From the IMG/VR virus record IMGVR_UViG_3300025120_000246, positions 1-34,373 of that record: a DNA stretch of 34,373 nucleotides; one strand, written 5' to 3'. The stretch's first letter is position 1, and the number at the start of each line of letters is the position of its first letter. The translations under genes were made by a program, and so were the position numbers. Source of the DNA: a virus. Lineage: Duplodnaviria; Caudoviricetes. Positions 14,481-33,642 of this stretch are shown piece by piece. The notes under the pieces were generated by a model. The model did not search any database. It was given only the letters and a program-made list of their open reading frames with translations, and was not told the DNA's origin.

Positions 14481-15731
14481 TTATTTAAATTTATAACCTA
14501 AACCAGCATATTTGTCTACACTTCCACCCTTTTTAAAATTCATTGATGCTCCGAAGTTTAGTCCTCCCTGACCCAATCTAGCATTTAAGTCAACAGGTTG
14601 TCCAAACACATCTACTGAATTAGAGTAGCCTAATTCAGGTTTCCCTGAAAAAACATTATCAAATGTTAAATTACCTATAGGTGCTTTTATTTGAGGGTTT
14701 TTTGAAAAATTATATAAATCCATTAAAGAAGGTAATCCTGTATTTTCGGCCATAAGAACGGGTTGTCCAATTGGATTTGTTTCAGGAGGTTGATTATAAA
14801 AATCTTCTTTTTGTTTATTTTTCATTTGCTCTTCTTTAAGCATTTTCTCAAATAGGTACTTGTCTAGTATTGTTCTTTCTTGAGGAGATAGTTCAGTTCT
14901 TAAATCTGATCCAATAGTTCCCTCAGGAACAACACCAATACTCTCTAAATATATATTACCCAGGGTATTATTAGGGTCATAGTATTCAGGAAGAGATACA
15001 CCAGCATTGTCTAATCCAAAAATAGAGGGGTCACTCTCGTCTCCAATCTGTCTTGGAGGTATTAGAGGATCTATTGCTTGTGTTTGTATTTTTTCTCTTG
15101 TTAAATCCTGAAATGGATCCTCTGTAGTTGTATAAATTGTGCTACCACCACCCGTTGTTACGGTGGGTTCTCTTAAAATATTTTTTCTTAAATTATCATA
15201 TAAACCTTTGACAGAATCTATTCCCTGTGTAGTTCCACCTTTAACTCGACTAAAAAGATCAGATAAAACGTTACCAATAGTTCCCCCTCTAGCTGCAAAA
15301 TCACCAAAACCCTGTGCTATGTTACCTAAACCAAATCCTATATCTCCCATAACTTCTCTGTTTGTAGGTCCATATTTGTTAGCTGTTTCCTGTCTAAATT
15401 TTTCAAAACTCATAGGAGCATTAGCTCCAAGGTTTCTTGTAAACCTACCAAAACCCTCAGGTCCTTGGTTAACTTCTTTAATTGGATTTAAAAAGTCTTT
15501 TTTAAATTGATTAACTAAATCTGCTTGTTTTTGTCTTTTTTCTAAACGATCATCAGTAATATCTTTTCTACCTCCAAAATAATCTTCTCTAGTTTTATTA
15601 AGACTCTCTCTTCTTTGTATTGCTTTATCTAATTCTTTTGATATTGCTCTGACATCTCTTGATTTCCCTGTGGAAGATGTACCAGGAGAGATAGGTCCAC
15701 TAGTTTTTGTTTTCATACGTATAGGAGCCAT
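14481..15731 (-). CDS. Putative internal virion/ejection protein
   Basis: Late operon position; low-complexity Gly-rich; C-terminal FKKGGSV. Confidence 0.55.
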   Translation of the reverse strand: MAPIRMKTKTSGPISPGTSSTGKSRDVRAISKELDKAIQRRESLNKTREDYFGGRKDITDDRLEKRQKQADLVNQFKKDFLNPIKEVNQGPEGFGRFTRNLGANAPMSFEKFRQETANKYGPTNREVMGDIGFGLGNIAQGFGDFAARGGTIGNVLSDLFSRVKGGTTQGIDSVKGLYDNLRKNILREPTVTTGGGSTIYTTTEDPFQDLTREKIQTQAIDPLIPPRQIGDESDPSIFGLDNAGVSLPEYYDPNNTLGNIYLESIGVVPEGTIGSDLRTELSPQERTILDKYLFEKMLKEEQMKNKQKEDFYNQPPETNPIGQPVLMAENTGLPSLMDLYNFSKNPQIKAPIGNLTFDNVFSGKPELGYSNSVDVFGQPVDLNARLGQGGLNFGASMNFKKGGSVDKYAGLGYKFK

Positions 15732-18289
15732 TACGCTACCACCTGTGGTTTTTTAAACTTTTTTGATTCGTAGAGATCCACTATACCACCCTCTGCTGCA
15801 TTGAAAAGAGGCATGCCAATTGACTCTAAGCTAGCCACGGTCTGCGGATTAATGGGGGAAGACAAAGGAGGGATAACGTCTACCCCCTGTCCGCGGGACA
15901 CTTGAGGAGAAGGAATGTTAGAAACTTGTAAATCTTTAGTATCAGGTTCCATCACAATAAACTCTGATTCTGGTGCTTGTATTTTAGGAATAAACTCTTC
16001 TGCTTTTTTCTTAACATCATCCAAAAGTTCTTGACCGTAGTAAGATCCTGTTGTGGCAAACTCTGTTTGATAATCCATCATTGACTCTGTAAAAAATACT
16101 ACATTGGCAGCCATATTTTTTGTTAAATCTTTAACTTGTTTTTCTCCTGTTTGAAGAGCAATAAAATTTTCTAAACCGTCTCTACCCTGTTTTGTTAATA
16201 ATAACTTAGAGAGATAATTCATACCTCCCGCTCTCGCTACTAAACCAGGTAAATTTACAAAACCCAAAACAATATCAAGCATACTTGCCTTAGGGCTTAC
16301 ACGACTAAAATTAGCTCTTCGAATATATTCTAAAACATCTCCTATTTCCTTTAATTCTTCTTTTGAAAATAAAATTTCTGCCTTACCTTTACCTCCACCA
16401 GCAGTTCCCTTTAAAGTTTTGTTAAGATTTTGCATAAACCTAACAGGATCTAAAATATCCTTAAAAACCAAAGGATCAAATTTATTAGATTGCACCGCGT
16501 CTCGAGCTTGTCCCCCAGCTTGTCCCCCAGCTCTAGTTGCTTTAGATAATTTTTCAGCTTCCAAGGTTAAATCTTCAATCGGTCTCAAGGATTTAATAAA
16601 AGCATCCTCTATAAGAGTAGCTTTCATTTGCTGAATAACATCATCATATCCGTTGTCCCTTAGAAACTTTAAAGCTTCATCTGTTTCTTGAGCGCTTAAC
16701 TTAGTAAATTGATTAACAATGTCATCCGCAGATTTTTTCCCTGTTTGAATAAAACCACTTAAAAAAGAATTTTCTAAAGCTGTTATTAAGTCGGAGTCTA
16801 TTTTGTAATCATCTCTTACTTTTTGTAAATTTTTTGCTACAGCGGTTTGAATGGTATCACTCATTTCTTTTAACTGAACATTACCCATTAAACCACTCTC
16901 AATGGTTTGATCTAAATCTTTATTTAAAGCATCCAATAATTCTCTGGACGGTCTCTTCTGAGCAGCGGCACCTAAATCTTTGAAGACACTACCCGTTCCC
17001 GCTGCGGCTGAACTGTATTGACTAATTAAATTTTGAAATTGAAGAGCAGTTAATACACCCTCTCCCCCTGTATCATCCAGTAAAGATGCTCTAGCGTCTA
17101 ATAAACTCCTGTACAGAGAGTCATCCCCTGTGCCCATTGGTTTGTATTGTGCTATTAATTCATCTAATTTAGCTACAAAGTTATTTGTATTTAATAAAGG
17201 TATCTCAGAAAAATCAACTATTTTTCCTGATTTTTGATCTTTTAACTTAGATAAATTGGCAAACCCCTCATCGGCTCTAACCTTTCTATTTTTAATTAGA
17301 TTATCTAAAATATTATTGTAAGAAGTAGAAATTTTATTTCCTAAGAGAGGACCACCTTGTTTACCATACAGTTGTTTCATCATATTCTGTATTGCTGTAG
17401 CGGTGTTGGTTATCTGTTCAAACGCTAAATCAGCTCCCTGACCTCTCGTCAGGTAATACCCTCTTAAAAAATCTTCTATCTGTCTTAAAAATTTATCACC
17501 GCTTATCTCTGATAAACTAAGTGCTCCATATTTTTCCTGTAATCTTAAACCCTCTTCAAAAAATGCTCTTGCTTCACTACCTTTTTCTCCTTTAATTGTT
17601 TTAACAATATTTTTTGTAGCAAAGTTTTTTACAGGGTTAACAGTTGTAATCCAGTTTAAGAAACTGTTAGCAGCCCACTGAGTGGATCCTCCCAACACAC
17701 CATTAGAAACAACTCTAAATGCTCTTTCCTCATTAGTTAGGTTTTCTTCACCTGGTAAGGAAGAAGATATAAATTGTAAAGCTCCCTCTCCAGCAGCCAT
17801 TGTTAAGGCAGCGGTTATAGGATTAGCAGTAAACATAGCGGGACCAAATTGTATTACCTCACTAGCCATTTCAATTGGCTGTATAAACATTTCTGATACA
17901 TCGTTTGCTGAAAATTCGGGATTGTATGCTTCCCAGCTAGCTCCTGGTTCATCTCTAAAAACAATGTTTCCCTCATTATCGGAGAAGACATTATTTTCTC
18001 CATAAATGTTTTTCACATAATTAATTTCACCTGCCTTACTGACTCCCTCCTTTAAATCAGCAAATAATCTATCTTTAAAAGCAACTTTGTCGCTTTTTCC
18101 CTTGGGATATAAATCAGGAATTTGCTCTTCTATTTGAGACAAAAAAGATAAAAAGTTTTCCGCATTGGAGACATAAGGTTTAAAGACTTCATCTTCTTGT
18201 ATAGGAATTAAAGGAATATCTTTAACACTTCTAAAGGGATCATAAGTCCCTGTTTCTTTACCTAATATTGGGTTGAAATCTTCAGCCAT
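15731..18289 (-). CDS. Large helical internal virion/ejection protein
   Basis: 852 aa, helical, with hydrophobic Ala/Gly segments; C-terminal FNAAEGGIV. Confidence 0.6.
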   Translation of the reverse strand: MAEDFNPILGKETGTYDPFRSVKDIPLIPIQEDEVFKPYVSNAENFLSFLSQIEEQIPDLYPKGKSDKVAFKDRLFADLKEGVSKAGEINYVKNIYGENNVFSDNEGNIVFRDEPGASWEAYNPEFSANDVSEMFIQPIEMASEVIQFGPAMFTANPITAALTMAAGEGALQFISSSLPGEENLTNEERAFRVVSNGVLGGSTQWAANSFLNWITTVNPVKNFATKNIVKTIKGEKGSEARAFFEEGLRLQEKYGALSLSEISGDKFLRQIEDFLRGYYLTRGQGADLAFEQITNTATAIQNMMKQLYGKQGGPLLGNKISTSYNNILDNLIKNRKVRADEGFANLSKLKDQKSGKIVDFSEIPLLNTNNFVAKLDELIAQYKPMGTGDDSLYRSLLDARASLLDDTGGEGVLTALQFQNLISQYSSAAAGTGSVFKDLGAAAQKRPSRELLDALNKDLDQTIESGLMGNVQLKEMSDTIQTAVAKNLQKVRDDYKIDSDLITALENSFLSGFIQTGKKSADDIVNQFTKLSAQETDEALKFLRDNGYDDVIQQMKATLIEDAFIKSLRPIEDLTLEAEKLSKATRAGGQAGGQARDAVQSNKFDPLVFKDILDPVRFMQNLNKTLKGTAGGGKGKAEILFSKEELKEIGDVLEYIRRANFSRVSPKASMLDIVLGFVNLPGLVARAGGMNYLSKLLLTKQGRDGLENFIALQTGEKQVKDLTKNMAANVVFFTESMMDYQTEFATTGSYYGQELLDDVKKKAEEFIPKIQAPESEFIVMEPDTKDLQVSNIPSPQVSRGQGVDVIPPLSSPINPQTVASLESIGMPLFNAAEGGIVDLYESKKFKKPQVVA

Positions 18290-18296
18290 ATCATTT

Positions 18297-20603
18297 TTAA
18301 CCTGGACTATTTATCCTATCTTTAATATCTTGCTCATTGCCATCAAGGAATTCTGTTCCGCGATCCCTAGATGGTAAATCAAAGACTTTCTCCAATTCAT
18401 CATAGTAATCAAACTGTTTATTTTTTGGAAGACTATCAAAATCACCTACCGTAGGTAATTCTAATCCTTGAGTAAAGTCGGGAAGAACTGATATTGGTTC
18501 TAAACCTCTCACTTTAACAATATTTTCAAAACCATCTCTAACTCCTTCGTAGGCTTTGTAAGCTCCCAGTGTGGCTCCTCTCGCCGCGGAGATAAGAGTT
18601 GCTCTTTGTTTAGGTGTTAAAACCGTTTGACCATTAAGAATCTTGTTTATAGTATTCAGACTTATATTCTCAAATGTAGATAAGTCTGTAGATGCCGCTA
18701 AACCAAATTCACTATCTCTAACAACAGAGGTTGGATCTAAAATTTTCATGTAAGTAAAAACCAGAGCCATGTCAGTGGCACCAGTGGAATCTGCGGCTAT
18801 GGTATCTAGAATAGAGAACTGTCTGACAGCCGAAGAAAAGTCTTTTGTTTGAGCTAGATATTCTTTTCTTAAAGTGTCTTCTTGTGACATTTTAAATTTT
18901 CTCCCCTCATCTGTATCATAAAAATCTTGTTTAAATCGAGGACTATTTTTTACAAAGTAATCTGCGTCTTGATCGATTTGAATTAATTCTTCTTGAGTCA
19001 GATCAGGGAATAAATCTTTAACTGACTGAGCTGTCTGTAATTTAAATCCTTTATTTACCTGTTCCATTTTTGCGTTTGTTAGAGAGGTGTAATATATATC
19101 TTGACTGCTGATGGGGTTACCAGTGCTTTTATCAAAGGGAATAACAACTCCATTTACCGTTTGAAATACTATTTCTCTGTTCTTCTGTTCTGCAAAAGCT
19201 TTTTTAATTGCTTCTGCTCCAAAAAGTTTAACAAAGTCTGACTGTTTTGTATCTTGAATCTCTTTGTCTTTTGTTGCTAAGTTTAGGGCTTGTGTTTTAT
19301 AAGGTTCTTTTAATTTCTCTCCCGCTTGACCTGCCACACCAATATTACTTAATCCTCCCATCAAAACTTCACTAAAAGATTTTTCAGGATCTAGAATATC
19401 TGTAGCTGTCTTAAGTAATAAAGGAGAAACAACACTAGTTAAAAATTTACTCTTTAAATCAACATTGTCTAATAATTTTTCTTCATATTGTTTTGCTCTT
19501 TGAGTAATATCCACAGGTGGCTTTCCCATATCAAACATATTCTCTCCCATTTTTGTAATAAAATCATACTGATTAGGGGACATCATATTCTGTAAAATAT
19601 CATAGTTTTGTGTGTTATCTGTAGGCATCTTTAAATTCATTGACATGTCTTGACCAGAAAACGGTACAGGGCTGGTTGAGTTAATAAAAAGTCCTGTGTT
19701 TGCCCTTAAAATACCATCACTCATTGGCTGATTTAATTGAGCAGAAGCTGTCGGCATCATGTCTTGAGCTTGCTGAGTGGCTCCAATACCCTGTTGCTCT
19801 TGTAATTCGAATACTGGTTGTACTAAAGCGAGAACGGATAACGGTGTATCCTGAGCGTCACTCTCTCCTACTACTCCAGCTAATTCTTGTACTCTTCCCT
19901 CCATTGCAACATCGTCACCTCTAATATCATTCATTAGCTGAACATACTGGTCAGGAGATACCTTAGCGATACCATCGGAAGTAGGGTCAGATGGAGGTGT
20001 TTCTCTGTCCAATCCATCAGCAATTCCCACAGCGTCGGATTCCTCTCCCTCCATGGGAGATCCCTCCGCTCTTTTTTTTAGTCTATCTAAAAAGTTCTGT
20101 TCTGCTGGATCTAATTCAAAATTGGTATCAGGTATAATCTGGTTTTGTGTTTCTATTGTTGCCTTATAGTTTGTAAATTGGTTTAATAATGGAACTAAAG
20201 CACTAAAGTTTTCAGGTGTATTACCTTGTAACAACATTTCTAAAATATTTTCACCGTTAGGTATTTCGGTTATTAAAAATCGTCTAAATTCATCATCGAA
20301 TAAAGCTTTTGTGTAAGAATCTATTGTTTCTTCCATTGGCATTTCACCATCTCTTACAACAGAGTTGGGATCAGCCATCATTTCACCATCTCTTACAACA
20401 GAGTTGGGATCTAACATATTTAAAAACTCACCATCTCTTACAACAGAGTTGGGATCTAATAATTGATCAGCAAACAAATTCATTAAAGCAGATTTTTCAC
20501 TATCTCTTACAACAGAGTTAGGGTCTAACATATTTAAAATCTCATTATCTCTTACAACAGAGTTGGGATCTTGTCTAAAAAGTAGTCTATCAAATACGGA
20601 CAT
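18297..20603 (-). CDS. Internal virion/ejection protein with N-terminal DPNSVVRD repeats
   Basis: 768 aa; C-terminal DMALVFTYMKILDPTSVVRDSEF motif typical of podoviral injection proteins. Confidence 0.65.
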   Translation of the reverse strand: MSVFDRLLFRQDPNSVVRDNEILNMLDPNSVVRDSEKSALMNLFADQLLDPNSVVRDGEFLNMLDPNSVVRDGEMMADPNSVVRDGEMPMEETIDSYTKALFDDEFRRFLITEIPNGENILEMLLQGNTPENFSALVPLLNQFTNYKATIETQNQIIPDTNFELDPAEQNFLDRLKKRAEGSPMEGEESDAVGIADGLDRETPPSDPTSDGIAKVSPDQYVQLMNDIRGDDVAMEGRVQELAGVVGESDAQDTPLSVLALVQPVFELQEQQGIGATQQAQDMMPTASAQLNQPMSDGILRANTGLFINSTSPVPFSGQDMSMNLKMPTDNTQNYDILQNMMSPNQYDFITKMGENMFDMGKPPVDITQRAKQYEEKLLDNVDLKSKFLTSVVSPLLLKTATDILDPEKSFSEVLMGGLSNIGVAGQAGEKLKEPYKTQALNLATKDKEIQDTKQSDFVKLFGAEAIKKAFAEQKNREIVFQTVNGVVIPFDKSTGNPISSQDIYYTSLTNAKMEQVNKGFKLQTAQSVKDLFPDLTQEELIQIDQDADYFVKNSPRFKQDFYDTDEGRKFKMSQEDTLRKEYLAQTKDFSSAVRQFSILDTIAADSTGATDMALVFTYMKILDPTSVVRDSEFGLAASTDLSTFENISLNTINKILNGQTVLTPKQRATLISAARGATLGAYKAYEGVRDGFENIVKVRGLEPISVLPDFTQGLELPTVGDFDSLPKNKQFDYYDELEKVFDLPSRDRGTEFLDGNEQDIKDRINSPG
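20344..20570 (-). repeat. Five in-frame 29-bp repeats (TCACCATCTCTTACAACAGAGTTGGGATC)
   Basis: Copies at 20344, 20383, 20428, 20497 and 20542; periods 39, 45, 69 and 45 nt. Confidence 0.95.
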
Positions 20604-21511
20604 TAAAACAGTCCCTGCAATCCGCTAAGACCTGACAGTGCTCCTAAACCCGCTACACCGTAACCAGCAATTGTTCTTAGGGGCGACATACTACTTGTTG
20701 CCGCTGGAGAGGTACTTGTTTGAATTGTTTGTGTACTTGTTGGTGCTCCCGCATAAATATCTGATAAGAAACCAACTCTCTGATATGGCTCATACATTTG
20801 AGAAAGTTGATTTTGTCTTGCCACATCCAGACTTGATTGAGCTTGCTGTTGCCCCAAGGCACCTAAACCTAATAATGTATTAATATCTTGTGAACCTAAT
20901 TGTTGACCTGTGACACCTAATTGAGCTTGCTGTGCTCCAAAGGAGCCATACTGAGGAGCGAGTGCTCCTAAACCTGCCGCTGAAGTTTGCTGCCTTTGAC
21001 CTAACTGTTGTTGTGCATTTAAAAATGCTTGAGCTTGTGCCTGAGCTAATGACGATGCACGATTACGCTCTAATTCTGCTTGTGCAACTCCCTCTCTTCC
21101 TCCTCCAAACGCGCCCGCCTGAACCGCTTGCGCTGCCTGACCCTGTTGAGCAATATTATAGGAACGATTAATTTCATCTTGAATAGACTGTTGATAGGGG
21201 TTCATAAAAGGTTGAAGCTGTTCCATAGTCGGAGCTGTACCAATATCGGTGTAAGCTTGCGCTGCCTGACCGAGTGTACCTAGTCCCGCCGCCTGAGATT
21301 GAAGTGCGGATGTTAGGAAAGGTTGATAGCCTCCTATACCCTGAGAACCTAATTGAATAGCTTGTAATTGCTCAGGAGTAAACCCTGCTACCTGCTGTGC
21401 TGGTAACGTTAAAGGTTTATCCGCTAAAGACTTAGCGGTATCCATTAACCCCAGTCTTCTTGCTTCAATATCTGGTGCTTCTCTTTGTAAATATTCCGTT
21501 GTTTCTACCAT
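20603..21511 (-). CDS. Gln/Ala/Gly-rich DNA pilot/ejection protein
   Basis: FMNPYQQ, GAFGGGREGVAQAE, LGALGQQQAQ..LD, hydrophobic Gly-rich C-terminus. Confidence 0.7.
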   Translation of the reverse strand: MVETTEYLQREAPDIEARRLGLMDTAKSLADKPLTLPAQQVAGFTPEQLQAIQLGSQGIGGYQPFLTSALQSQAAGLGTLGQAAQAYTDIGTAPTMEQLQPFMNPYQQSIQDEINRSYNIAQQGQAAQAVQAGAFGGGREGVAQAELERNRASSLAQAQAQAFLNAQQQLGQRQQTSAAGLGALAPQYGSFGAQQAQLGVTGQQLGSQDINTLLGLGALGQQQAQSSLDVARQNQLSQMYEPYQRVGFLSDIYAGAPTSTQTIQTSTSPAATSSMSPLRTIAGYGVAGLGALSGLSGLQGLF

Positions 21512-22605
21512 TATGACATCCCTATGCTTTGTTGTGATAGACTACCACCGTTTTCTAAACTTTTCATCATTTTATACATATTTTTTGCTCCCGCTTTCCG
21601 CGATCCACCGCCCGCGTTTCGAACTGCCTTGGCAGTCATTACAAATTCTCCATCCGATAGCATTGCAGGAATGTCATCAGAAGTTCCCGTTCCAGCTCCT
21701 GCAATTTCTCCGATGCGTTTTGGGTGTTCTCTGACTTTACCATCAGAGTGTTCAATTCGCTGACCGCTGTTCTCGATCCCGCCTGTCACCTCTCCGCCAT
21801 CAGCGGCTAGATAAATACCAGGATCGTATCCCTGTGGTCCTGTGATATCTAATAGTTGATATTTTGAGGGGTCGGCGTAGTAGTATTCATTGGGAGTAAA
21901 AGAGGCAACATACTCTTCTTCTGTTGGTTGCTCTTCGGGTTTCATAGCCAGAGAAGATAACCCAGCTATTGTCGCTGCCGCAGGTAAAAACTGTCCCGCA
22001 ATACCTCTCTTTACTTTTTCAGGAACAATACCTAATTGTTTATTTAACATTGCTCTATTTAAAAAATTTTCTTGTATTACATCTTCTGTTAAACCCTCAC
22101 CAGTAATTGGAAACTTCTTTTCAATAAAGGATTGAGATAAAGCCATGTCATCTGTAAACTTTGGATTAGTCTTAAATTGAGAAGCCTCACTGAAGGGGTT
22201 TAATCTTGAATCCTTTACTTTATCAAACACATTACTAATACCTTCCACCTGACCGCTGTTCTTTGGTTGAAGATTAGGTTTAACACCGAATGCTCCTTCC
22301 ATAAAACCTTGACCGAGTGTTGCTCCCTCAGGTCTCATTATAGCACCTCTCAGTCCTCCAATACCTACTTGCAACGCTAAATCTTTTGCTACGTCTACTG
22401 GTTTTTTTCCAGCGGCTAGACCAATACCCGCTCCTAATCCAAGTTGAACTGCTGGACCACCAGGTATAAAAGGTAAAACATAAGGTGCTATGGGTTCTAC
22501 TGCTCTAGCAAAACCTGTAACCGTATCTTTAACATTTTGAAAAAAATCACCAACAAGAGATCCTAGACCGTATTCATACATTTGTGGATATACTTGTTGC
22601 TGCAT
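21511..22605 (-). CDS. Virion protein with tape-measure-type C-terminal domain
   Basis: Hydrophobic Gly-rich N-terminus; AADGGEV...GAGTGTSDDIPAMLSDGEFVMTAKAV. Confidence 0.7.
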   Translation of the reverse strand: MQQQVYPQMYEYGLGSLVGDFFQNVKDTVTGFARAVEPIAPYVLPFIPGGPAVQLGLGAGIGLAAGKKPVDVAKDLALQVGIGGLRGAIMRPEGATLGQGFMEGAFGVKPNLQPKNSGQVEGISNVFDKVKDSRLNPFSEASQFKTNPKFTDDMALSQSFIEKKFPITGEGLTEDVIQENFLNRAMLNKQLGIVPEKVKRGIAGQFLPAAATIAGLSSLAMKPEEQPTEEEYVASFTPNEYYYADPSKYQLLDITGPQGYDPGIYLAADGGEVTGGIENSGQRIEHSDGKVREHPKRIGEIAGAGTGTSDDIPAMLSDGEFVMTAKAVRNAGGGSRKAGAKNMYKMMKSLENGGSLSQQSIGMS

Positions 22606-23453: not shown

Positions 23454-24158
23454 TTATTTAAATGATTTTTTCTTCCAAAACAAGCTTTTATAGTTATTAA
23501 AAAGTCTACTAAAGTATGCAAATTTTTGTTTATTAGTTAAAAGCTCATCTTTATCTACATATTCTGTGCTCATTTTCCAGTCTTCTCTTTTAAATGGAAT
23601 CACCATAGCCATTGGAGATCCTTGTTTTAAAAGAGTTCTTTTTTTTAAATCTTCAGTCCAATAAAAAGGAAAGTTAACATTCATGATAAACTCATCTGTA
23701 TCAACAATTCCAGTAATTAAATCAAATGGCAGTGCATGATTAAAAGGAGTTACAAATAAACAACTGTATCCCTTAGGAGTAACTACCTTCCAAGGATTCA
23801 AAAACTTAAAAGCAACATCAACAGTTCTTTTTGGGTTTCTCATTTCTTCCGCAGTTTGAAAATTAGGGTGAGAAGATATTCCAATTATGTTTGAAAACAT
23901 ATCTCCTAGTTGATCATTACATGTAAATTTGACTTGATCAGCTTCTTCATCAACCCAAATTTCAAAGTCGCATGGAAAAGGAATAATGTATCCTGCTGTT
24001 AAAGAATCTAAAAAGGGCATACATCTTTTTACTGTAGAATCATTTTGATCTTTAATATAAGGGGGTAATTTTTTAAATGCATCTGGTATAAAAAAAGTTG
24101 AAGGTTTTGGTTCAGCACAATATCCTTTAAGCGGTGATATAAATTTTATTTTATTCAT
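23454..24158 (-). CDS. DUF6065-like protein (start revised to 24158)
   Basis: TVKRCMPFLDSLTAGYIIP, KFLNPW...TPKGYSCLF..P, GIVDTD, GSPMAMVIPFKREDW. Confidence 0.7.
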   Translation of the reverse strand: MNKIKFISPLKGYCAEPKPSTFFIPDAFKKLPPYIKDQNDSTVKRCMPFLDSLTAGYIIPFPCDFEIWVDEEADQVKFTCNDQLGDMFSNIIGISSHPNFQTAEEMRNPKRTVDVAFKFLNPWKVVTPKGYSCLFVTPFNHALPFDLITGIVDTDEFIMNVNFPFYWTEDLKKRTLLKQGSPMAMVIPFKREDWKMSTEYVDKDELLTNKQKFAYFSRLFNNYKSLFWKKKSFK

Positions 24159-24687
24159 TGGATAGTTTAAAATTACAAGAAAATACAATTCTTTCTTTGT
24201 CTTTATTTGGAGGAACACTGTGAGGTAATCCTCCTGGAAAAATTACAAATTTAGATTTCTCAGCCTTCACTTCAATACTTGGCGAATTAATATATGGATA
24301 ACCAAGATTAAAAAATACAGTGCTAGAAGATTCTTCAGTACACTGAATATAAAATATTAATGAAAAATCATTTAAGTTTAGGTTATGTGTATGTAGTGAA
24401 TGAAAATCACTTTCTCTATACGCCTGTAACCAAGATCCATCGATAGAGAAACTTTTTCTATTCATAATTTGTTTGGTAAATATTTCTATAAATTGATAAA
24501 CATGATTTTTTAAATCAATTAATTTTTTATCTTCAAGAACATTCGGTGTATTGTAGTATGTAGTTAAATTTCCCTCATCTACAAATTTATTTGTAGACAC
24601 AAATTCAATTGTAGATTTATTGTCAAAGTCAGAGGGTATTTCATACAAGGTGCTCTGAAAATGATGTCTTGTTATATCTAGGCTCAT
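24151..24687 (-). CDS. 2OG-Fe(II) oxygenase (TIGR02466-like)
   Basis: W...Y...FHSLHTH...IFPGGLPHSV...RIVFSCN. Confidence 0.85.
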   Translation of the reverse strand: MSLDITRHHFQSTLYEIPSDFDNKSTIEFVSTNKFVDEGNLTTYYNTPNVLEDKKLIDLKNHVYQFIEIFTKQIMNRKSFSIDGSWLQAYRESDFHSLHTHNLNLNDFSLIFYIQCTEESSSTVFFNLGYPYINSPSIEVKAEKSKFVIFPGGLPHSVPPNKDKERIVFSCNFKLSNE

Positions 24688-24693
24688 TATTCT

Positions 24694-25239
24694 CTATAGC
24701 TGTATATTACATGTTAAAGAAAGTTTTGCATTATTTATTTCTACAACTTGATGATTTATAAACTTGTCAAACCAAATACATTCTTGATTAGACAAAAGTG
24801 TCTCTTTTTGATCAATTATCCACTTAGATTTACCATATATGTTTTTTACTATAACAGGATATTCGTGTTGATGCTTGGGGAACGATATTGATTTTTTACC
24901 ATTACCAAAATAAAAATTACAATTAATCTCTGTTTTAAAATTAATATTTAATAATTTTTGAATAATCCATGTATCTTTTGTAAAAGAGCCTATATTGGAA
25001 AGAATTAAAGTGTAGCCTTCTTCATAACATTTAATGCATTTTTCGGGATCTAAATATCCATCCTCACAAAAAAAATCTTGATGTTTATTACCATTTTCTA
25101 ATATAGCTTCAACACTAGGTTGACCATTTAAATATTGTTTAGGCCAACGTCTTCTATCAAGCAATCTTTCTAAAACATGATCTTCTGTTAAGTTAACTTT
25201 TTTATTTTCTAATGTTTTTAAAAATCTATCTTCTACCAT
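24694..25239 (-). CDS. JmjC/cupin oxygenase-like protein (YcfD/ROXA-like)
   Basis: GYTLIL, CNFYF, SFPKHQHEYPVIV..IYGKSKW, HQV, LSLT. Confidence 0.75.
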   Translation of the reverse strand: MVEDRFLKTLENKKVNLTEDHVLERLLDRRRWPKQYLNGQPSVEAILENGNKHQDFFCEDGYLDPEKCIKCYEEGYTLILSNIGSFTKDTWIIQKLLNINFKTEINCNFYFGNGKKSISFPKHQHEYPVIVKNIYGKSKWIIDQKETLLSNQECIWFDKFINHQVVEINNAKLSLTCNIQL

Positions 25240-27055
25240 CTGGTTGTATGTCGAAACGCTGAGTGCCTAATCTCCAAGAAGTACCTGAAGTATTGGAAAC
25301 AACATTTACTGTAAATTCTCTTCCTCTTCCCCTTAAACTTACAAATTCAGTAGTGTCACTAAAAGTTGTTGTTTTAGTTACACTCTGTGTGTTGTTTGGA
25401 TAATATTTAAATTCTAAGTCCATATTTAGAACACCTGATTGATTCTGTATATCAGGTATCAACTTTTGCACCATTAGTATATCATTACCTTCTCCTATTT
25501 CAACTGATCCAGATTTTACATAAGCAGTCATTGCTTGTCCGTCAGCATCGTTTCCTGTTTCATGTAAATACATTTGTGTTGCTCCTGCTGTAAGTCCTAA
25601 AATAGTTTCATTATTTGCAACAGTAGTGCCAGAATATTCTGAGCCAATAGGATTTTGATATACTTCTCTGTCTATCCAAGTAGTCCTTGATAAGGTGCCA
25701 GTCCACCAAGTTTGCTCTAAATAGTTATAAGCAACAACAGCATTTATTTGATTAGATCCTTCTCTAGGATAAAACCATAGTATTTCATTAAACTCACCGT
25801 TATGTCCTGCAAAAGCATTTTCTGCCCCTGTTTGATTAATATTATTAAAAATAAATTGTTCAACAGTGCATGGTAATTTTTTCACAGATCCATCAAAAAG
25901 ATAAAAAGAATCTTGAGACATCCAGTAACTCACACCATTTAAATCAACACCTGCGTGACTGCCCATAATTCCACAGTTTTGACCTAATTGTCTAAGACCA
26001 AAAGTAAAAGGTGGTCCAATAAACTGTAGTGAGTGAAGGGAGGTATCTGTCCACACTAATATTTGACCTCTTGAACGTTCAGCCGCCATGATCCGTGATC
26101 CGTCAGCAATACGTAGTGAACCAGCAGTATTCTCTGCTGTTGGCTGATAGTTGGTAATATTTTCTTGATCGGAGAATCTTATTAATAAATCATCTTGAGT
26201 AGTTGTATCGCCAATCGTGTTTTCTGTTCCCATGATCATTAAATGTCTGTCTGGAGTAGAAATTAAACTTAATCGTGAAGCAGTTGGAGCGTTAGTGATA
26301 GCAGTAGCTCTTGTGTTAAGTCCACTAGAAGTATCCCACTGAAAAGTACCGCCATTTAAAGCAGTAGCTATTAAATCTTCACCGAAGTTATCTAGAGACC
26401 ACTGCCTTGCCTCCAAAGTAACATTTGAGACTGTAGAAGGTGATCCCCATCCTCCAAAACCAAATTTATCTGTACCATATCCAAAGGCAAGCAGAGAAAA
26501 CTCAGGACCAGGATTTATTTGATAGTTGGCATTACCTGTTCCTCCACCAGCTGCTGTAGAACCAGAAGCAGTGCTAGTATGAGTAACTACGTAAGCAGCT
26601 GCATTGACAACAGAAGAAACTTCAAATTCTTTATTCATGTCTAATCCGTCTATTGCTGAGAATGAGTCAAATTTTACGAAACTACCAATTTCACAATCAT
26701 GGCCTGAATCCGTAACTACAATGGAAGTAGTTGCATTTGTTGTAAAAGGATTTGTTAAAGAAGTAGGGCCTCGTCTAATCGGTGTAATATCATAAGCCTC
26801 TCCTTCTTGAATAACATATAATTTTCTATCCGTTCCGACAGCATTATATCTTGTGCCGTCTAAGGATACCCAAGCGTGCTGATCCCTAGCTACTCCAACT
26901 ATAGTCTTAGCAATAAATTTCTCCCACCCTTGTATTTTTTGTGGCAATCCTTGAAAAAAGCGTACATTATCACCGTCTGTCCACTTACCTTCGCCTGTGT
27001 AGTCGGTAACTTCTTTATTAATACCGGGTGCTGGTCTAAAATTAACTAATGGCAT
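25226..27055 (-). CDS. Tail nozzle / P22 gp10-like DNA stabilisation protein
   Basis: 609-aa beta-propeller-like sequence (W.DGDNVRF, WSLDNFGEDL, IRFSDQE, YNYLEQTW, DIQPDGRR). Confidence 0.72.
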   Translation of the reverse strand: MPLVNFRPAPGINKEVTDYTGEGKWTDGDNVRFFQGLPQKIQGWEKFIAKTIVGVARDQHAWVSLDGTRYNAVGTDRKLYVIQEGEAYDITPIRRGPTSLTNPFTTNATTSIVVTDSGHDCEIGSFVKFDSFSAIDGLDMNKEFEVSSVVNAAAYVVTHTSTASGSTAAGGGTGNANYQINPGPEFSLLAFGYGTDKFGFGGWGSPSTVSNVTLEARQWSLDNFGEDLIATALNGGTFQWDTSSGLNTRATAITNAPTASRLSLISTPDRHLMIMGTENTIGDTTTQDDLLIRFSDQENITNYQPTAENTAGSLRIADGSRIMAAERSRGQILVWTDTSLHSLQFIGPPFTFGLRQLGQNCGIMGSHAGVDLNGVSYWMSQDSFYLFDGSVKKLPCTVEQFIFNNINQTGAENAFAGHNGEFNEILWFYPREGSNQINAVVAYNYLEQTWWTGTLSRTTWIDREVYQNPIGSEYSGTTVANNETILGLTAGATQMYLHETGNDADGQAMTAYVKSGSVEIGEGNDILMVQKLIPDIQNQSGVLNMDLEFKYYPNNTQSVTKTTTFSDTTEFVSLRGRGREFTVNVVSNTSGTSWRLGTQRFDIQPDGRR

Positions 27056-27101
27056 TTTGTCAATATACTACTTTTTTACCATAAATCTACAGTTCTTGTG
27101 C

Positions 27102-27614
27102 TTATCTAGGTTCGAAATTAAAAGCAATTGAAATTCTTTGATGATTTTCACTGTTGCAAGAACTTACAGAATGAGGGTATATACCAGGGAAAAAAATAAT
27201 CATCTTTTCTTGTGGAATTACAGAGGTTATATTTGTTCTAATTGTTGGCACCAAATGATGAAAATTTATCGTTGATTTGTCACAACATACTTTGTGGTAA
27301 TAAACTGCTGACCATGCTTCAAAATTAGGACTTTCATGTATATGAGAAACATTAGAAGATTTACCATCATTAATATTTAACCAAAAAGAATTTAACATAC
27401 AATTAATATTAACTGATTCTAGACTTTCTACTAAAAACTGTGTTAAATCATTAAAGCCAAAATCTATAAGATTACTCTGATAGCCTCCTCGATTACTTAA
27501 AGATACTCCTTTATCGAAAGACAATAACTTATCAATATCTCTTTGAATTAAAGATATATCTCCAAGATATTCTGTTAAAAAACAAGAATCCTTGCTAAGT
27601 ATTTTTTCAATCAT
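27102..27614 (-). CDS. 2OG-Fe(II) oxygenase (TIGR02466-like)
   Basis: SNRGGYQS, WLNIN, HIH, FFPGIYPHSV, RISIAFN. Confidence 0.87.
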   Translation of the reverse strand: MIEKILSKDSCFLTEYLGDISLIQRDIDKLLSFDKGVSLSNRGGYQSNLIDFGFNDLTQFLVESLESVNINCMLNSFWLNINDGKSSNVSHIHESPNFEAWSAVYYHKVCCDKSTINFHHLVPTIRTNITSVIPQEKMIIFFPGIYPHSVSSCNSENHQRISIAFNFEPR

Positions 27615-28173
27615 TTACTTGATTAGAAAAATTAAAAGATGCAGTAATTCTATCATTTTCACAATTACTTACAGAATGATAAAGCCACGAAGGGAATAAT
27701 ATAAGAGATCCTTTTTTTTCGTTTATTTGTTGATCTTCAACAAACTCAAATGGTCTAGTTTTACTTTCTACTAATTCTGTTTTTGAAAAACATAAATTGC
27801 CGTTACCTGGTTTGATAATAAGGACTCCACAAAAATCTGCAAATCCATGAGTGTGTAATTTAGTTAAATCATTTTTTTGATAAAAGTTAATCCAAGCGTC
27901 ATTTGTTATCCAATTATTATATTTCCAATTCTCGTTTTTACCTATCTCGGTGAGAATGCTTTGACAAATATAATCACATAAACTTCTTAATTCTTCATAT
28001 TCTTTTAGTCCATCCCAGCCTGATGTAAGTGCTTTGACATTTGCTAAATTTTTTTTCCATTTATCTTTATCTACAAGAACTTTTTTTTCTAATGTATCGC
28101 AGAAATCTTCATTTATTTGTAGATGAAAAACATTAGTTGGAAACCAATTTTCTTTTTTTATATCGACGTTCAT
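27607..28173 (-). CDS. 2OG-Fe(II) oxygenase (TIGR02466-like)
   Basis: WINFY, LHTH, LFPSWLYHSV, RITASFN. Confidence 0.87.
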   Translation of the reverse strand: MNVDIKKENWFPTNVFHLQINEDFCDTLEKKVLVDKDKWKKNLANVKALTSGWDGLKEYEELRSLCDYICQSILTEIGKNENWKYNNWITNDAWINFYQKNDLTKLHTHGFADFCGVLIIKPGNGNLCFSKTELVESKTRPFEFVEDQQINEKKGSLILFPSWLYHSVSNCENDRITASFNFSNQVND

Positions 28174-28973
28174 TAATCTTTCTTATTAAATAAAGATCCC
28201 ACATGCCCTTTAAATGATCTATTTCCAAAATGACTTAGAGGCATAGCTATATCAGCCCATATATCTCCTCCACATTCTTGCCAAAGTCTAGAAAAATAAT
28301 AATCTTCTGATAAATATCTTTTTACACCATTAGTTTCATATACCCCCGCACAAAATAAATCGTAACAGTTATCAGAGCTATAAGATTTACCATTGACAAT
28401 TTGATCAGATACATATTTTCGTTCTGGGAATTTCTTCATCATTGTTCGTAACACTTCTCTTTTGACAAGCATCATTCCTGTAGCTGCCTCCTGAATCTTA
28501 CAAAAACCATTGTCCATCCTTACATTCATAGGATCATCAAAATTTAAATTATAGCCTAAAGATCTTACTTCTATTTCTTCAGCAGTGGCTTCAGGGTGCT
28601 CTTTTAATATCTTAGGTATTCTTTCAAAATGAATATGCTTTCTTGGATAGATTCCACATGTAATATCTTTATCAAAACAAAGCATACGTTCTATATTCTC
28701 AACTTTAAAACCTATATCAGAATCAATAAATAGTAAATGTGTGGCAATAAAATCTGTTTGATCCATCATCATAGAAACACAAGTATTTCTAGCTCTAGTA
28801 ATTAAACTCTCATTTCCCATAGACTGTATACGCAGTCCTACGCCTTTTTCCATAGACCACTGCTGTAAGGACAATAAACCATGCATTGTATTTTCTGTAA
28901 GCATCCCACCATACATTGGCATTCCTAAAAATATTTTATAGTTCTTGTCTTTAAGTTCTTCTGGTTTAAGCAT
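28173..28973 (-). CDS. GT-A fold glycosyltransferase
   Basis: PMYGG, ESLITRARN, LLFIDSDI (DxD), ATGMMLVKR, YLSEDYYF. Confidence 0.82.
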   Translation of the reverse strand: MLKPEELKDKNYKIFLGMPMYGGMLTENTMHGLLSLQQWSMEKGVGLRIQSMGNESLITRARNTCVSMMMDQTDFIATHLLFIDSDIGFKVENIERMLCFDKDITCGIYPRKHIHFERIPKILKEHPEATAEEIEVRSLGYNLNFDDPMNVRMDNGFCKIQEAATGMMLVKREVLRTMMKKFPERKYVSDQIVNGKSYSSDNCYDLFCAGVYETNGVKRYLSEDYYFSRLWQECGGDIWADIAMPLSHFGNRSFKGHVGSLFNKKD

Positions 28974-29452
28974 TATTTTCTCCTTGTTTTGATAGCTAGT
29001 GTCATTCTAAAATCGTTAATATTTATATTTGGTAAGGCTCTATGAAAAATCTTAGCGTTAAAAATTATGGCTCTATTATACAAAGGATAGATACATAAAG
29101 AAGTATTGTTTTCTAATAACAATTCTGTTGCTCCTCCACTTTTTACTGTCCAATTTTTATTTAACCCTATTAAATAAGTTTCATCTCCATCATCCTGATG
29201 AAAATCACCATGCTGGCTATAAGTCTGTCCGTTAATATAAATTCTTGTAACTTGATTATTGATAATTTTATCTAAGTTTTTAGCTTCTTCAGAATCATCA
29301 ATATTTAAATGCCAAAACCAACTATCATTTTCTTCATCATTAGATTGTCCTTTTCTCCATTGACTGGATAGAGCTTTATTATAAATACTATCTATTAAAT
29401 TTTGAGGTAAGAAATTATCTGTGTATCTAATTTGCTCATTTATTACGTTCAT
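28973..29452 (-). CDS. 2OG-Fe(II) oxygenase
   Basis: RIYINGQT...FHQD...GGAT...IFHRA...RMTLA. Confidence 0.85.
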   Translation of the reverse strand: MNVINEQIRYTDNFLPQNLIDSIYNKALSSQWRKGQSNDEENDSWFWHLNIDDSEEAKNLDKIINNQVTRIYINGQTYSQHGDFHQDDGDETYLIGLNKNWTVKSGGATELLLENNTSLCIYPLYNRAIIFNAKIFHRALPNININDFRMTLAIKTRRK

Positions 29453-30057
29453 TATTTTTTGTAAGCAATGTTTTTTCTTTGATCATATTTATATTCAGGA
29501 TAATGAGGTCCTTCTTCATCTATAAAATGTAAAAAAGCTTGTGCACAATGATCTCCGCTAAACTTATTTCTCCAATGAACTAATTTTTCTCCCATATAAA
29601 CAACTCCATCTCCTGGTTGTATTGTTATTTCTTTTTTTAAAGAGTATCCGTCATCAAGATTTTTATCTTCATTGTTGAAATCACCAAAATATATAGGCCA
29701 AGGATCTCCTCCAAAGTTAACTGTGACAGAGTATTCACATGAGGGTCTGTCACTATGGGGTTTTAAAATCTCTCCTTTTGTATACAGTCTAGTATAGGTA
29801 TATGTCGGACAAAGTTTTTTACTTGTAACTTCACTAAGTTTGTCTACTACAAAACTAGAAAGACATTCAGTAACAACATCACCATAACAATACCTTAAAT
29901 ATTTTTCTTGTTCGTCATCTTGATTATTAGAAAAACTTTGATTAGTACAAGCTTTTAATACTAGATAATTATATATAAAAGTTGTTAATTCCTTTGAAAC
30001 TAAATTAGGAACATAAACATAACTATTTTCATTAAAATATGTCTTTAGGTTGTCCAT
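29452..30057 (-). CDS. 2OG-Fe(II) oxygenase
   Basis: PTYTYTRLY..G..L.PHSDRPSCEYS...PGDGVVY.G...HWR...QAFLH. Confidence 0.85.
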   Translation of the reverse strand: MDNLKTYFNENSYVYVPNLVSKELTTFIYNYLVLKACTNQSFSNNQDDEQEKYLRYCYGDVVTECLSSFVVDKLSEVTSKKLCPTYTYTRLYTKGEILKPHSDRPSCEYSVTVNFGGDPWPIYFGDFNNEDKNLDDGYSLKKEITIQPGDGVVYMGEKLVHWRNKFSGDHCAQAFLHFIDEEGPHYPEYKYDQRKNIAYKK

Positions 30058-30620
30058 ATTACTAATACCTTTCTATTTCCTGATTCTACTGGAGCTACTT
30101 TATGTGGAAACATAAAGTTAGAAGGAAACATAAGGCACTCTCCTTTATCAAGCTTTATACCCTCTTCATCATTTCCTACTAAAAGTTTTCCGCCTTCCCA
30201 CTCATCTTTAGAATTAACACCAATAAGCATAGTTAAAACTCTAGGCTCTAATTTGTAGTGATCTGTGTGATATTCATAATGTCCTTTGACTTTTCCATCA
30301 TAAGATAAAAAATTAAAGGTAGATTCTGAACCAAAGTACCAGGGAGATACTTTATCAATATAAATATCCTGTAATTTATTTTTTAATATAGATAGTTCAT
30401 TAAATAAAATTCTTTTTGAAATGGTGTCAACATCTTCTTCTTTAAAAGGTTTTTGCCTGACATGCCTGACTCTTAAATCTGGACCTGCAAAAGTTCCACC
30501 ATGTCCCCATTCTTCTTTATCATAGAACATAACTTCTTCCATAAGTCTACACTGAGAATTAGACAGTATATCCTTGACATGGAGGCAATACTCCATGATG
30601 TCCTTTTTTAAATTAAGCAC
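30045..30620 (-). CDS. Prolyl-4-hydroxylase-like 2OG-Fe(II) oxygenase
   Basis: YHTD...WEGGKL...FPSNFMFPHKVAPVESGNRKVLVIW. Confidence 0.87.
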   Translation of the reverse strand: MLNLKKDIMEYCLHVKDILSNSQCRLMEEVMFYDKEEWGHGGTFAGPDLRVRHVRQKPFKEEDVDTISKRILFNELSILKNKLQDIYIDKVSPWYFGSESTFNFLSYDGKVKGHYEYHTDHYKLEPRVLTMLIGVNSKDEWEGGKLLVGNDEEGIKLDKGECLMFPSNFMFPHKVAPVESGNRKVLVIWTT

Positions 30621-31539: not shown

Positions 31540-32577
31540 CTAATCTTTAGAACATGCAATTACATTTGCAAATTTTACGTTCATGTTTGGAACTGACAAT
31601 GATGTTGTTGCTGATGCATTACCACCTAGTGCAACACTACCGCTTAAAGGGTGAGTGTGACTACCACCTCCACCTGTAGTGCCTGTACTGCCGTTTGTAA
31701 CATTTTGAGAACCAACAGCAGCTGGATTAAAATAATTATTTGGACCAATAGGTGAACTATGTGTGTGAGAAGGTAATTGTGGGTTTGAAACTGTAGCAGC
31801 TCCCATACTAAAATTACCTGAGCCTGAAGCAGAACTTAAATCATTAAAAAGAATATCACCAGTTTCGGTAGTTCTACTTCCAGCAAATGTTGTACCAAAT
31901 GCATCTGAACCCCCTACTGCTCCACCCGTTCCAGTTACAACTCTCATTGTTGTGGTGTTTATAGAAGCGTCTGTATTTTGTGTCCAACCAGAAGGTGCGG
32001 AACCTTGAAAAAATAATGCAGTTGTCCCAGTAGGAATACTCGATACTCCAGTTAATGTAGAGCCATTACCAGAATAAGATGTTGCATTTATAGTTCCGTT
32101 AGCAGATGTGAATACTGTACCATTAACAGTTAATGAATTTTTTACACTAAATGTACCCAAAGAATTTGCAAAAAGATCAACCATTGCATCACCTTTATTG
32201 TACATAATGGTGTGAGCACCTTGAACTACAGCAACTCCGTTTGATGCATGACCTGTTGGTGCTACAGTCAAAGTTTGAGATCCTGTAGTATTGTTAAAAA
32301 ATATGTAGTTAGATTCAACGGCAGGAACAAAAACTTTAATATCGCCTGTCAAAGCTCCTGTAAATTCAATTACTTTATTAGATGATTCAGCATTAGGGTC
32401 AGCATTATTTGTTGTAAGGGTAACATCAGCAGAACCAGCAACACTCTTTGATAAATATCCAGCAGTAAAAGCGTCTACTACCTCTAAATTATTATTTGTA
32501 TTTTCTCCCCAAGTGTTTGCGTTAGCTCCTGTTGCTTGAAGTTCTAGTTTATATCTATCTGAATATGTTGATGCCAT
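31540..32577 (-). CDS. Tail fibre protein (paralog 3)
   Basis: MASTYSDR N-terminus, tail-collar-like APSGW, paired SHTH metal motifs. Confidence 0.8.
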   Translation of the reverse strand: MASTYSDRYKLELQATGANANTWGENTNNNLEVVDAFTAGYLSKSVAGSADVTLTTNNADPNAESSNKVIEFTGALTGDIKVFVPAVESNYIFFNNTTGSQTLTVAPTGHASNGVAVVQGAHTIMYNKGDAMVDLFANSLGTFSVKNSLTVNGTVFTSANGTINATSYSGNGSTLTGVSSIPTGTTALFFQGSAPSGWTQNTDASINTTTMRVVTGTGGAVGGSDAFGTTFAGSRTTETGDILFNDLSSASGSGNFSMGAATVSNPQLPSHTHSSPIGPNNYFNPAAVGSQNVTNGSTGTTGGGGSHTHPLSGSVALGGNASATTSLSVPNMNVKFANVIACSKD

Positions 32578-32580
32578 TTT

Positions 32581-33642
32581 TTAATCCTTTGTCGCTATTA
32601 TACTGTCTGCAAATTTTAAGTCCATTGCAGGAACAGAACTTGATATAGGTGTTGCTAAACTACCAGAAATTGGAGGGTTACTAACACTGTGTGAGTGACT
32701 ACCGCCTCCACCTGAACTAGAAGTGCTTTCAGAAGCAGTGAAAGGTCCTAAAAGAAAAGTATCGGTAGGAGGAGAAACAAGCGACATTCTAGCTTGAGGA
32801 GCTGATCCACCTGAGTTTTTATTAGTGTGTGAGTGACTTGGAATTGTAGGATTACTTAATGAAGTATTACCTACACTGTAATTACTACTTAGAGCTAGGT
32901 TAGAGGTGCTTAACGGCACGTCTGTGCCTGTGGCTGTTTTTGAACCACTGAAAACTGTTGAAAAAGTATCTGCACCACCTGTTGCACCACCTGTTCCGTT
33001 AACAACCTGTAAACAGCACTCAGATAAAGTAGAGTTTGTGTTTGTTGTAAAACCAGTAGGAGCAGCTGTTTGCACAAACATTGCTTCTGTACCTGATGGA
33101 AATTCTGCTACTCCTGTAAGCCCTGCTCCATCTCCTTTGTATGTTGTAGCATTAACAACACCATTTGAATTTAATTGAATATTAGTGCCAATTTTTAATT
33201 GATTAATTACACGAACATTGCCCAAGGTACTAGCAAACAAATCAACAATTCTATCCCCTTTACAATATTGAACTGTGTGTGCTCCTTGTGATATTGCAAC
33301 TCCATTAGCAGCGTGTCCTGTTGGAGCTACTGTTAATGTAAAAGAACCTGATGTATTGTTAAAAAATATGTAATTATTTTCTACTGCGGGTACAAAAACT
33401 TTAATATTTCCCGTTAATGCTCCTGTAAATTCAATTACTTTATTAGATGATTCAGCACTAGGATCTCTGTTAGCTGTGGTCAATGTTACGTCAGCAGAAC
33501 CAGCAACACTCTTTGCTAAATAACCTGCATTAAAAGCATCTACTACATCTAAATTTGAATTTGTGACATTACCCCAAGAATCTACATTTGCTCCTGTAGC
33601 CATTAATTCAAGTTTTAATCTATCTGAATACGTACTTGCCAT
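32581..33642 (-). CDS. Tail fibre protein (paralog 2)
   Basis: Same architecture: APTGF, SHSH...GGGGSHSH. Confidence 0.8.
   Translation of the reverse strand: MASTYSDRLKLELMATGANVDSWGNVTNSNLDVVDAFNAGYLAKSVAGSADVTLTTANRDPSAESSNKVIEFTGALTGNIKVFVPAVENNYIFFNNTSGSFTLTVAPTGHAANGVAISQGAHTVQYCKGDRIVDLFASTLGNVRVINQLKIGTNIQLNSNGVVNATTYKGDGAGLTGVAEFPSGTEAMFVQTAAPTGFTTNTNSTLSECCLQVVNGTGGATGGADTFSTVFSGSKTATGTDVPLSTSNLALSSNYSVGNTSLSNPTIPSHSHTNKNSGGSAPQARMSLVSPPTDTFLLGPFTASESTSSSGGGGSHSHSVSNPPISGSLATPISSSVPAMDLKFADSIIATKD

Follow-up and report, generated by a model that had tools for sequence, protein, structure and literature searches.

Why should a phage ejection protein begin with five copies of a loop that occurs once more in its own C-terminal domain? 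The question is raised by a stretch of Caudoviricetes DNA 34,373 nucleotides (nt) long (IMG/VR virus record IMGVR_UViG_3300025120_000246, positions 1 to 34,373, called the window below) and by one of its genes, which encodes P0001, an ejection protein of 768 amino acids (aa) in the position of P22 gp20 (Table 1). To judge from sequence comparisons, the leader units of P0001, together with free copies of the same loop (copies outside the domain to which it belongs) in other small proteins, support convergent peptide self-mimicry of a loop of the ejection channel. The explanation that we favour, tentatively and short of even confidence, is that the leader units are injected decoys that would soak up a host or prophage factor binding this loop.

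P0001 consists of a disordered leader bearing the array, a conserved central segment, a helical stalk and the C-terminal domain. A sequence-only reading of the window had picked out five leader units and one C-terminal copy of the motif (ILDPTSVVRDSEF, 545-611 aa beyond the leader copies). This is confirmed by a codon-degenerate pattern, which finds exactly 6 sites in the whole window, all in the P0001 gene, and none in shuffled sequences (0/100); the C-terminal copy is identical to the repeat consensus at 25/29 nt. The leader copies are spaced 39, 45, 69 and 45 nt from start to start, each distance being divisible by 3. Four relatives from other assemblies (L077, P0018, P0019 and P0020) have a five-copy layout identical to that of the window, and sequencing run X1, which may itself be the source sample, contains contigs identical to positions 20125-20369 and 20430-20714, with raised depth over the collapsed stretch between them and no contig covering the entire array. 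As its layout recurs in those assemblies and X1 contigs match on both sides of it, the array is not an assembly artefact, a doubt that the sequence-only reading had allowed for. A low-depth X1 contig represents an allele in which the whole leader is replaced, without copies. The leader reads as disordered, aa 1-94 being modelled by AlphaFold 2 (AF2) at a predicted local distance difference test (pLDDT) score of about 30, and has no match above 0.76 in the ESM Atlas. The full-length model is of low confidence (predicted template modelling score 0.33), with structural matches to unnamed or uncharacterised phage proteins only, and a model of leader aa 44-90 in complex with two copies of the domain (score 0.00) carries no evidential weight.

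Table 1. Location of P0001, its motif sites and associated features in the window (ORF, open reading frame)
Feature	Position	Strand	Remarks
P0001, gp20-position ejection protein, 768 aa	18297..20603	-	ORF call
Free copy 1, DPNSVVRDNE	20541..20570	-	aa 12-21
Free copy 2, DPNSVVRDSE	20496..20525	-	aa 27-36
Free copy 3, DPNSVVRDGE	20427..20456	-	aa 50-59
Free copy 4, DPNSVVRDGE	20382..20411	-	aa 65-74
Free copy 5, DPNSVVRDGE	20343..20372	-	aa 78-87
RAEGSP, instance in P0001 of xxGG/xxGS tag, outside array	20055..20072	-	aa 178
Conserved central segment	19794..20036	-	about aa 190-270; invariant columns M224-G272 in alignment A1
C-terminal helical domain	18450..18896	-	aa 570-718; homologous to Kapi1 gp20, Mx8 and CRP-901 gp32 module
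Source motif in C-terminal domain, DPTSVVRDSE	18708..18737	-	aa 623-632; inter-helix loop entering next helix
gp7-like DNA ejection protein, 302 aa, upstream of P0001	20603..21511	-	phrog_4287, E 3.8e-15
852-aa ORF downstream of P0001	15731..18289	-	putatively gp16-like, by position only
xxGG/xxGS tag, ORF 14481-15731	14481-15731		tag at aa 399
xxGG/xxGS tag, ORF 15731-18289	15731-18289		tag at aa 831
xxGG/xxGS tag, ORF 18297-20603 (P0001)	18297-20603		tag at aa 178
xxGG/xxGS tag, ORF 21511-22605	21511-22605		tag at aa 267

In the model of the C-terminal domain (helical, pLDDT 87.5) the motif is the loop joining helices 49-63 and 71-80, and it holds four of the five columns that are invariant in a 150-row alignment (D52, D64, P65, S67 and E73). 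The sequence-only reading had named LDPxSVVRExE as a motif conserved in the C-terminal domains of podoviral injection proteins, and this is verified: the same loop is found in Kapi1 gp20, as DPxSVVREGE. Kapi1 gp20, a bona fide gp20 from a P22-like coliphage, is homologous to the domain over its residues 265-376 (BLASTP E 3e-8), scores of the domain hidden Markov model (HMM) are 152.6, 84.2, 151.7 and 112.7 bits (84.2 being that of Kapi1 gp20), phrog_13634 matches P0001 at aa 572-675, and the homologs in Mx8 and CRP-901 carry annotations as structural proteins of the virion. Among 50% cluster representatives, P0001 has 6952 relatives at E<=0.001, and most of the matches listed fall on this domain. 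A fold search of PDB with the domain model gives nothing at E<=0.001 (best Z 7.2, among generic helical bundles), a PDB sequence search with family profiles gives nothing meaningful, and the Pfam-bearing neighbour clusters of the domain in the ESM Atlas are leads only, one of them, at 0.87, having PF16928 in 23% of its members.

PF16928, the Inj_translocase domain that forms the N-terminus of Kapi1 gp20 (E 1e-106), has no match in P0001, which for this reason we do not file in the gp20 family despite its domain and gene order. By these two features it is likely gp20-like in function and likely builds the DNA-injection channel. In P22, the PP3 part of gp20 (256-435) is a dodecameric plinth that abuts the inner membrane and is the proposed template for gp16 (bioRxiv 10.64898/2026.09.03.749273). 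By analogy, the P0001 domain may have a plinth role where the periplasmic channel meets the inner membrane, the C-terminus of P22 gp20 being another allele (3.3 bits on the domain HMM). The loop is unchanged beside widely differing downstream genes in gp16 position, and its partner is therefore probably more conserved than gp16. The central segment of P0001, which is without a family match, is common to the entire family, while leader and C-terminal domain swap freely.

The copies seem to be maintained as peptide. A tandem DNA pattern identifies 35 loci (9 viral and 26 metagenomic), all of which (35/35) read the peptide in frame within an ORF, and 56 distinct copies use five Arg and five Ser codons. 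In the motif codons nonsynonymous divergence (pN) is lower than silent divergence (pS) in 9/10 ortholog pairs, a comparison inflated by the motif-based choice of copies and made on ten overlapping pairs whose flanking codons are also conserved; silent divergence is above that of the flanks in 7/10 pairs. In a comparison of 330 free with 132 domain copies, the free ones retain L-D-P-x-S-V-V-R-E-[GS]-E and drop the helix flanks YMK and FATA. The in-frame loci, the variable codons and the excess of pS together speak for protein-level selection, the lack of which the sequence-only reading had named as evidence against itself. A repeat acting at the DNA level (CRISPR-like array, operator or recombination site) is ruled out by silent variation, spacing in multiples of 3 and the consistent reading frame.

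Several distinct leader types have 1-5 copies in a survey of 121 relatives of P0001, and the loci L076 and L078 have 6, such that the variation in copy number anticipated from the window alone spans 0-6 among homologues. L067 and L078, otherwise near-identical, have 3 and 6 copies, and P0004 and P0005 have none, though they are 90% identical to P0001 over 89% of the protein. Copies are found in 18/71 full-length members with the motif domain and in 0/44 of those scored without it (20 truncated or anchor-less rows were left out, and one of the 44, P0093, is a motif-domain protein that is truncated). In a tree built from the central segment, copy presence changes 14 times and domain type only 4, and the same leader is joined to different domain alleles and gp16-position alleles in P0001, P0018 and P0019. 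Type-B relatives, which have an unrelated C-terminal domain, show no free own-domain copies when leader and tail are matched, only the shared xxGS..GE tag. One ORF (L060:3905-4675) consists of one free copy, then a partial domain and then apparently unrelated sequence, and may be chimeric.

Two proposals of the sequence-only reading, that the copies co-vary with the protein's own domain and that the motif was copied forward from that domain, hold in part. The own-domain match, at 4.51 vs 4.09 out of 9 variable positions (n=21), is modest; when each leader family is represented by one protein, p has a median of 0.02 and a range of 0-0.13. Most leaders hold the family consensus REGE regardless of their own domain. 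Single lineages are clear, and in some of them copying forward is visible: FMRMVDP occurs in both leader copies and in the own domain of P0047/P0050, the leader copies of L008 share codons with its own domain, and all five copies of the window have D for E relative to L077 and L005, as does the window's domain.

The same copies are found well beyond this family. Searching proteins of 30-379 aa with the leader yields 163 matches at E<=10; among the matches listed, 116/120 short proteins have at least two copies, and with the motif masked they form 36 clusters, one being a true domain fragment and one the window's own family. We give this count as some thirty, because masking may over-split short proteins. 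Since so many other small-protein clusters hold the same free copies, the array is not a quirk of one leader. Several carriers are only 64-91 aa long, hardly more than the array itself, none of the 120 short carriers has a transmembrane or signal-like stretch above simple Kyte-Doolittle thresholds, and one of 34 cluster representatives has a PHROG match other than via the motif. The short carriers are likely from phages as well; those whose context was read lie directly after the portal gene, as an extension of a gp7-like protein, before or inside a gp20-like gene, or after the ejection genes. When loci are chosen only for the domain, 0/80 have free copies (up to 10 kb of flank), and the array is therefore a lineage-restricted add-on. 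A search of GTDB genome contigs with one exact pattern, which diverged copies would escape, gave no tandem copies.

In the family of carriers following the portal gene, both complete genomes with copies of the DP motif (G023 and G027) encode the DP domain, as do G012 and G014. From the three complete sister genomes without DP copies the DP domain is absent, domain-less fragment records (G007, G013 and others, 10-67% complete, G013 also being without a gp7-like gene) having been left out of the absences. The gp20-position loops of these three sisters and of G038 are GALSEGEL, GSGSTSDMEF, GAAIAASEY or GTGSTSDIEF. Among 63 distinct post-portal ORFs, DP copies occur in 5, at least two G[AS]xSxxE copies in 6, and both in 0; the latter expression, composed after seeing the ORFs, has 24 matches in them vs a shuffle mean of 0.04. 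GSGSTSDME of L193 is the loop of the gp20-position gene in genome G035, a match drawn across genomes, the contigs with such arrays being too short for a link within one genome. To go by these ORFs, a second loop type (GSTSDxE, known from sister gp20-like alleles) appears to be mimicked likewise in one family. Arrays of G[AS]xS[DN]xE were observed in post-portal small ORFs of L193 (2292-3029), L360, L366, L370, L372, L375 and L377, and in L428:7612-9693.

As for its wider context, the window is by gene content part of a podophage-like genome. PHROG and Pfam scans identify PolA, an AEP primase and Pam3 gp32-34-like genes, the best PolA matches are to HTVC023P-type phages (52-53% identical), with DSL-LC04 (Gammaproteobacteria) at 51.8%, and the sequencing runs containing the stretch are mostly marine. 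The gene order around P0001 would be that of P22 7-20-16, the place of gp16 being assigned by position alone; the 852-aa ORF in this place has no match in PHROG and Pfam scans. A prohead protease was not found by these scans among 35 ORFs of the window, a partial genome. An xxGG/xxGS tag is found in 4/5 ejection-module ORFs vs one match in 13 other ORFs, and is a candidate packaging or cleavage signal. RAEGSP and RANTG, which the sequence-only reading placed after the leader as possible sites of its release, both exist (aa 178 and 300) but start 90 and 210 residues past the last repeat, and they belong to this tag common to four module ORFs; leader cleavage has no support. L191 (10454-19803), of the post-portal family, has many cargo-like ORFs in succession that begin or end with a GAL[GAS]xL-type tag, apparently the counterpart of xxGG in that family.

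The C-terminal part of ORF 21511-22605 (21514-21825, minus strand) contains, after an AADGG tag, a GTGTSD.IPA.LS.GEFV segment known from tape-measure proteins, with PHROG matches and a match to PDB 8zdo_S (E 7.6e-6); gp79 of HTVC023P has the same layout. Such a segment might read or process xxGG tags. Elsewhere, the structural module (23454-30620) includes a series of seven or more auxiliary genes that are 2OG-Fe(II) oxygenase-like or related, and three paralogous ORFs at 31540-34371, two of them matching phrog_31104, are spaced about 1065 nt apart with 75% identity over 300 nt. An AT-rich non-coding region (510-735), which has a run of 33 T and 3.2 tandem copies of a 33-nt repeat, is possibly an origin or genome end.

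If the leader units are decoys, as we tentatively propose, the loop would be a part of the channel that is unable to escape by mutation and that a defence could target. Phages would out-titrate such a loop-binding defence with tandem copies, about five extra per subunit in P0001, the leader and the small array proteins being packaged and ejected or present beside newly made gp20. The concerted change from E to D in the five window copies, matching their own domain, would represent re-tuning of the decoys. This reading fits best because the loop is invariant, its neighbours are divergent, and the copies are optional, multivalent and added on top of another module tag: they are confined to one module gene, whereas the xxGG tag already spans four module ORFs. 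Escape from SieA maps to the C-terminal region of gp20 (residues 338-350; PMC10883804), escape from HXS maps to T7 gp15/gp16 (PMC13128918), and T4 injects optional internal proteins that act in counter-defence (PMC3012670); by analogy, these cases may be precedents for blockers and counter-defence at this channel. A wider claim would be that marine podophages have repeatedly evolved injected self-mimic sponges, of at least two loop types and in dozens of carriers, marking an undescribed loop-recognising defence or a universal host receptor; we regard this as possible while leaning against it.

Several points weigh against the decoys. The analysis found no loop-binding partner or defence system. 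On the tree, the co-occurrence of copies and domain gives a sign test p of 0.5-1; the restriction of copies to motif-domain proteins is not phylogenetically independent, because domain type changes so rarely, and would be expected in any case, since there must be a source to copy from. The own domain is the best or tied match in 3/15 loci only, and the inflation of the pN/pS comparison described above must be counted here as well. The SieA escape residues cannot be placed on the loop, because the P22 allele does not align with it. In P22 the N-terminus of gp20 comes to lie in the extracellular channel rather than at the inner membrane (bioRxiv 2026.09.03.749273), and a tethered leader may therefore be misplaced unless it is released. 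In the accessible part of a survey of STAND sensors, no ejection protein is among the 13 targets (bioRxiv 10.64898/2026.01.04.697583).

The main rival, unlikely in our view yet the strongest of the alternatives, is docking to the phage's own machinery, in which the loop binds a phage partner (a neighbouring subunit, the gp16-like protein, scaffold or portal) and the copies serve as an avidity tag, giving stronger recruitment of the protein or its cargo to the head, holding the partner inactive until ejection, or catching diffusing gp16 afterwards. The position of the carriers with context read, after the portal, in a gp7-like protein, at a gp20-like gene or after the ejection genes, is in keeping with this, as are some co-variation of the copies with their own domain and the post-portal family, where the DP domain is encoded in the two complete genomes that have free DP copies but not in the three complete copy-less sisters. 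P22 gp16 acts in trans, the gp20 plinth being the proposed site of its assembly (bioRxiv 2026.09.03.749273), and the T4 capsid targeting sequence is a precedent for a short portable tag (PMC3012670). Against docking, the copies are missing in most relatives and in 80/80 domain-chosen loci, so that assembly works without them, cargo ORFs are already marked by other shared tags, and one leader is found on differing domain and gp16-position alleles (P0001, P0018 and P0019).

The remaining alternatives are less probable. Near-neutral expansion, in which pieces of the domain gene would now and then be copied into disordered ORFs that tolerate them and then multiply through slippage or conversion, their function being weak or absent, is improbable: the fast change in copy number (3 vs 6 in L067/L078), the 14 flips of presence on the tree and the higher silent divergence of motif codons than flanks (7/10 pairs), as gene conversion gives, are in its favour, but all 35 tandem loci are in frame, the loop core is kept and the flanking residues are not, the carriers of the copies are dissimilar and number some thirty, and a second loop type, different in DNA sequence, has been copied likewise. 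Head-maturation cleavage of the T4 and SPN3US type is specific for Glu, and we see a small chance that the repeats, which end in an invariant Glu and lie in a disordered leader, are protease sites cut during head maturation like propeptides of that type. A prohead protease does cut head proteins of SPN3US (PMC10052503), but a 10-residue match to the loop of a folded domain far exceeds what such a protease needs, the motif is in a single module gene, and no prohead protease is among the 35 ORFs scanned in this partial genome. A slimmer chance is exclusion of rival phages, by copies that stay in the envelope and block channel assembly of later phages with the same loop. P22 gp16 does diffuse between co-infecting particles (bioRxiv 2026.09.03.749273); on the other hand, hydrophobic stretches of transmembrane or signal-like type occur in 0/120 short carriers, the carriers read occupy late morphogenesis modules and not a sieA-like position, and the first channel to suffer would be that of the phage itself.

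Long-standing questions about podophage ejection proteins concern their packaging, their contacts in the host envelope and the means by which hosts block them. A loop of 10 residues that has been copied out and amplified many times independently points to a conserved binding partner, and the cultured coliphage Kapi1 shares the loop, so this partner can be fished for in laboratory E. coli. Either outcome would be useful: a decoy would reveal a new defence against injection, and a docking function would supply a portable tag with which to load podophage heads with proteins; if the copies are indeed sponges, the arrays offer ready bait for a loop-recognising defence or receptor. Within the titles and abstract openings returned by literature searches, which leave subscription papers largely uncovered, there is no description of free copies of an ejection-protein loop, and the accessible parts of PMC8954989, PMC9599517 and bioRxiv 10.64898/2026.02.16.706137 have nothing on such repeats.

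Among known systems, P22-type gp20 is close to P0001 in that P0001 follows a gp7-like gene and has a C-terminal domain homologous to that of Kapi1 gp20 with its DPxSVVREGE loop, the allele type being that of Kapi1/SEN22, Mx8 and CRP-901. P0001 differs in lacking the PF16928 N-terminus and in having a 340-aa, mostly disordered front end; PP3 of P22 itself is a non-matching allele, and the proteins of Kapi1, Mx8 and CRP-901 have no free copies. HTVC023P has a similar module with xxGG tags in gp79, gp82 and gp83, as well as the related PolA, but its gp82 has a short leader and a GAAVSEQE-type loop and is without the array. SieA (PMC10883804) and HXS (PMC13128918) are prophage or host blockers of DNA entry via tunnel proteins of the gp20/gp15 type, and thus of the type that a decoy would titrate. 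They are blockers themselves, evaded by point mutation, and the accessible parts of these papers do not mention a decoy. An exported decoy resembling SieA is ruled out for the array proteins by the lack of signal or membrane stretches (0/120). The T4 internal proteins are alike in being small, variable, optional and injected for counter-defence with a short portable tag (PMC3012670). That tag, the capsid targeting sequence, is on all internal proteins and is not described as the copy of a structural loop in the accessible text of the same paper; for P0001, a universal packaging tag of the T4 type is ruled out, 6/6 window matches being in one gene and the copies being absent from 90%-identical relatives. 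Where IPI* of T4 is a folded nuclease inhibitor (PMC3012670), the motif of P0001 is instead an optional tandem element, copied out of a domain that is essential for ejection.

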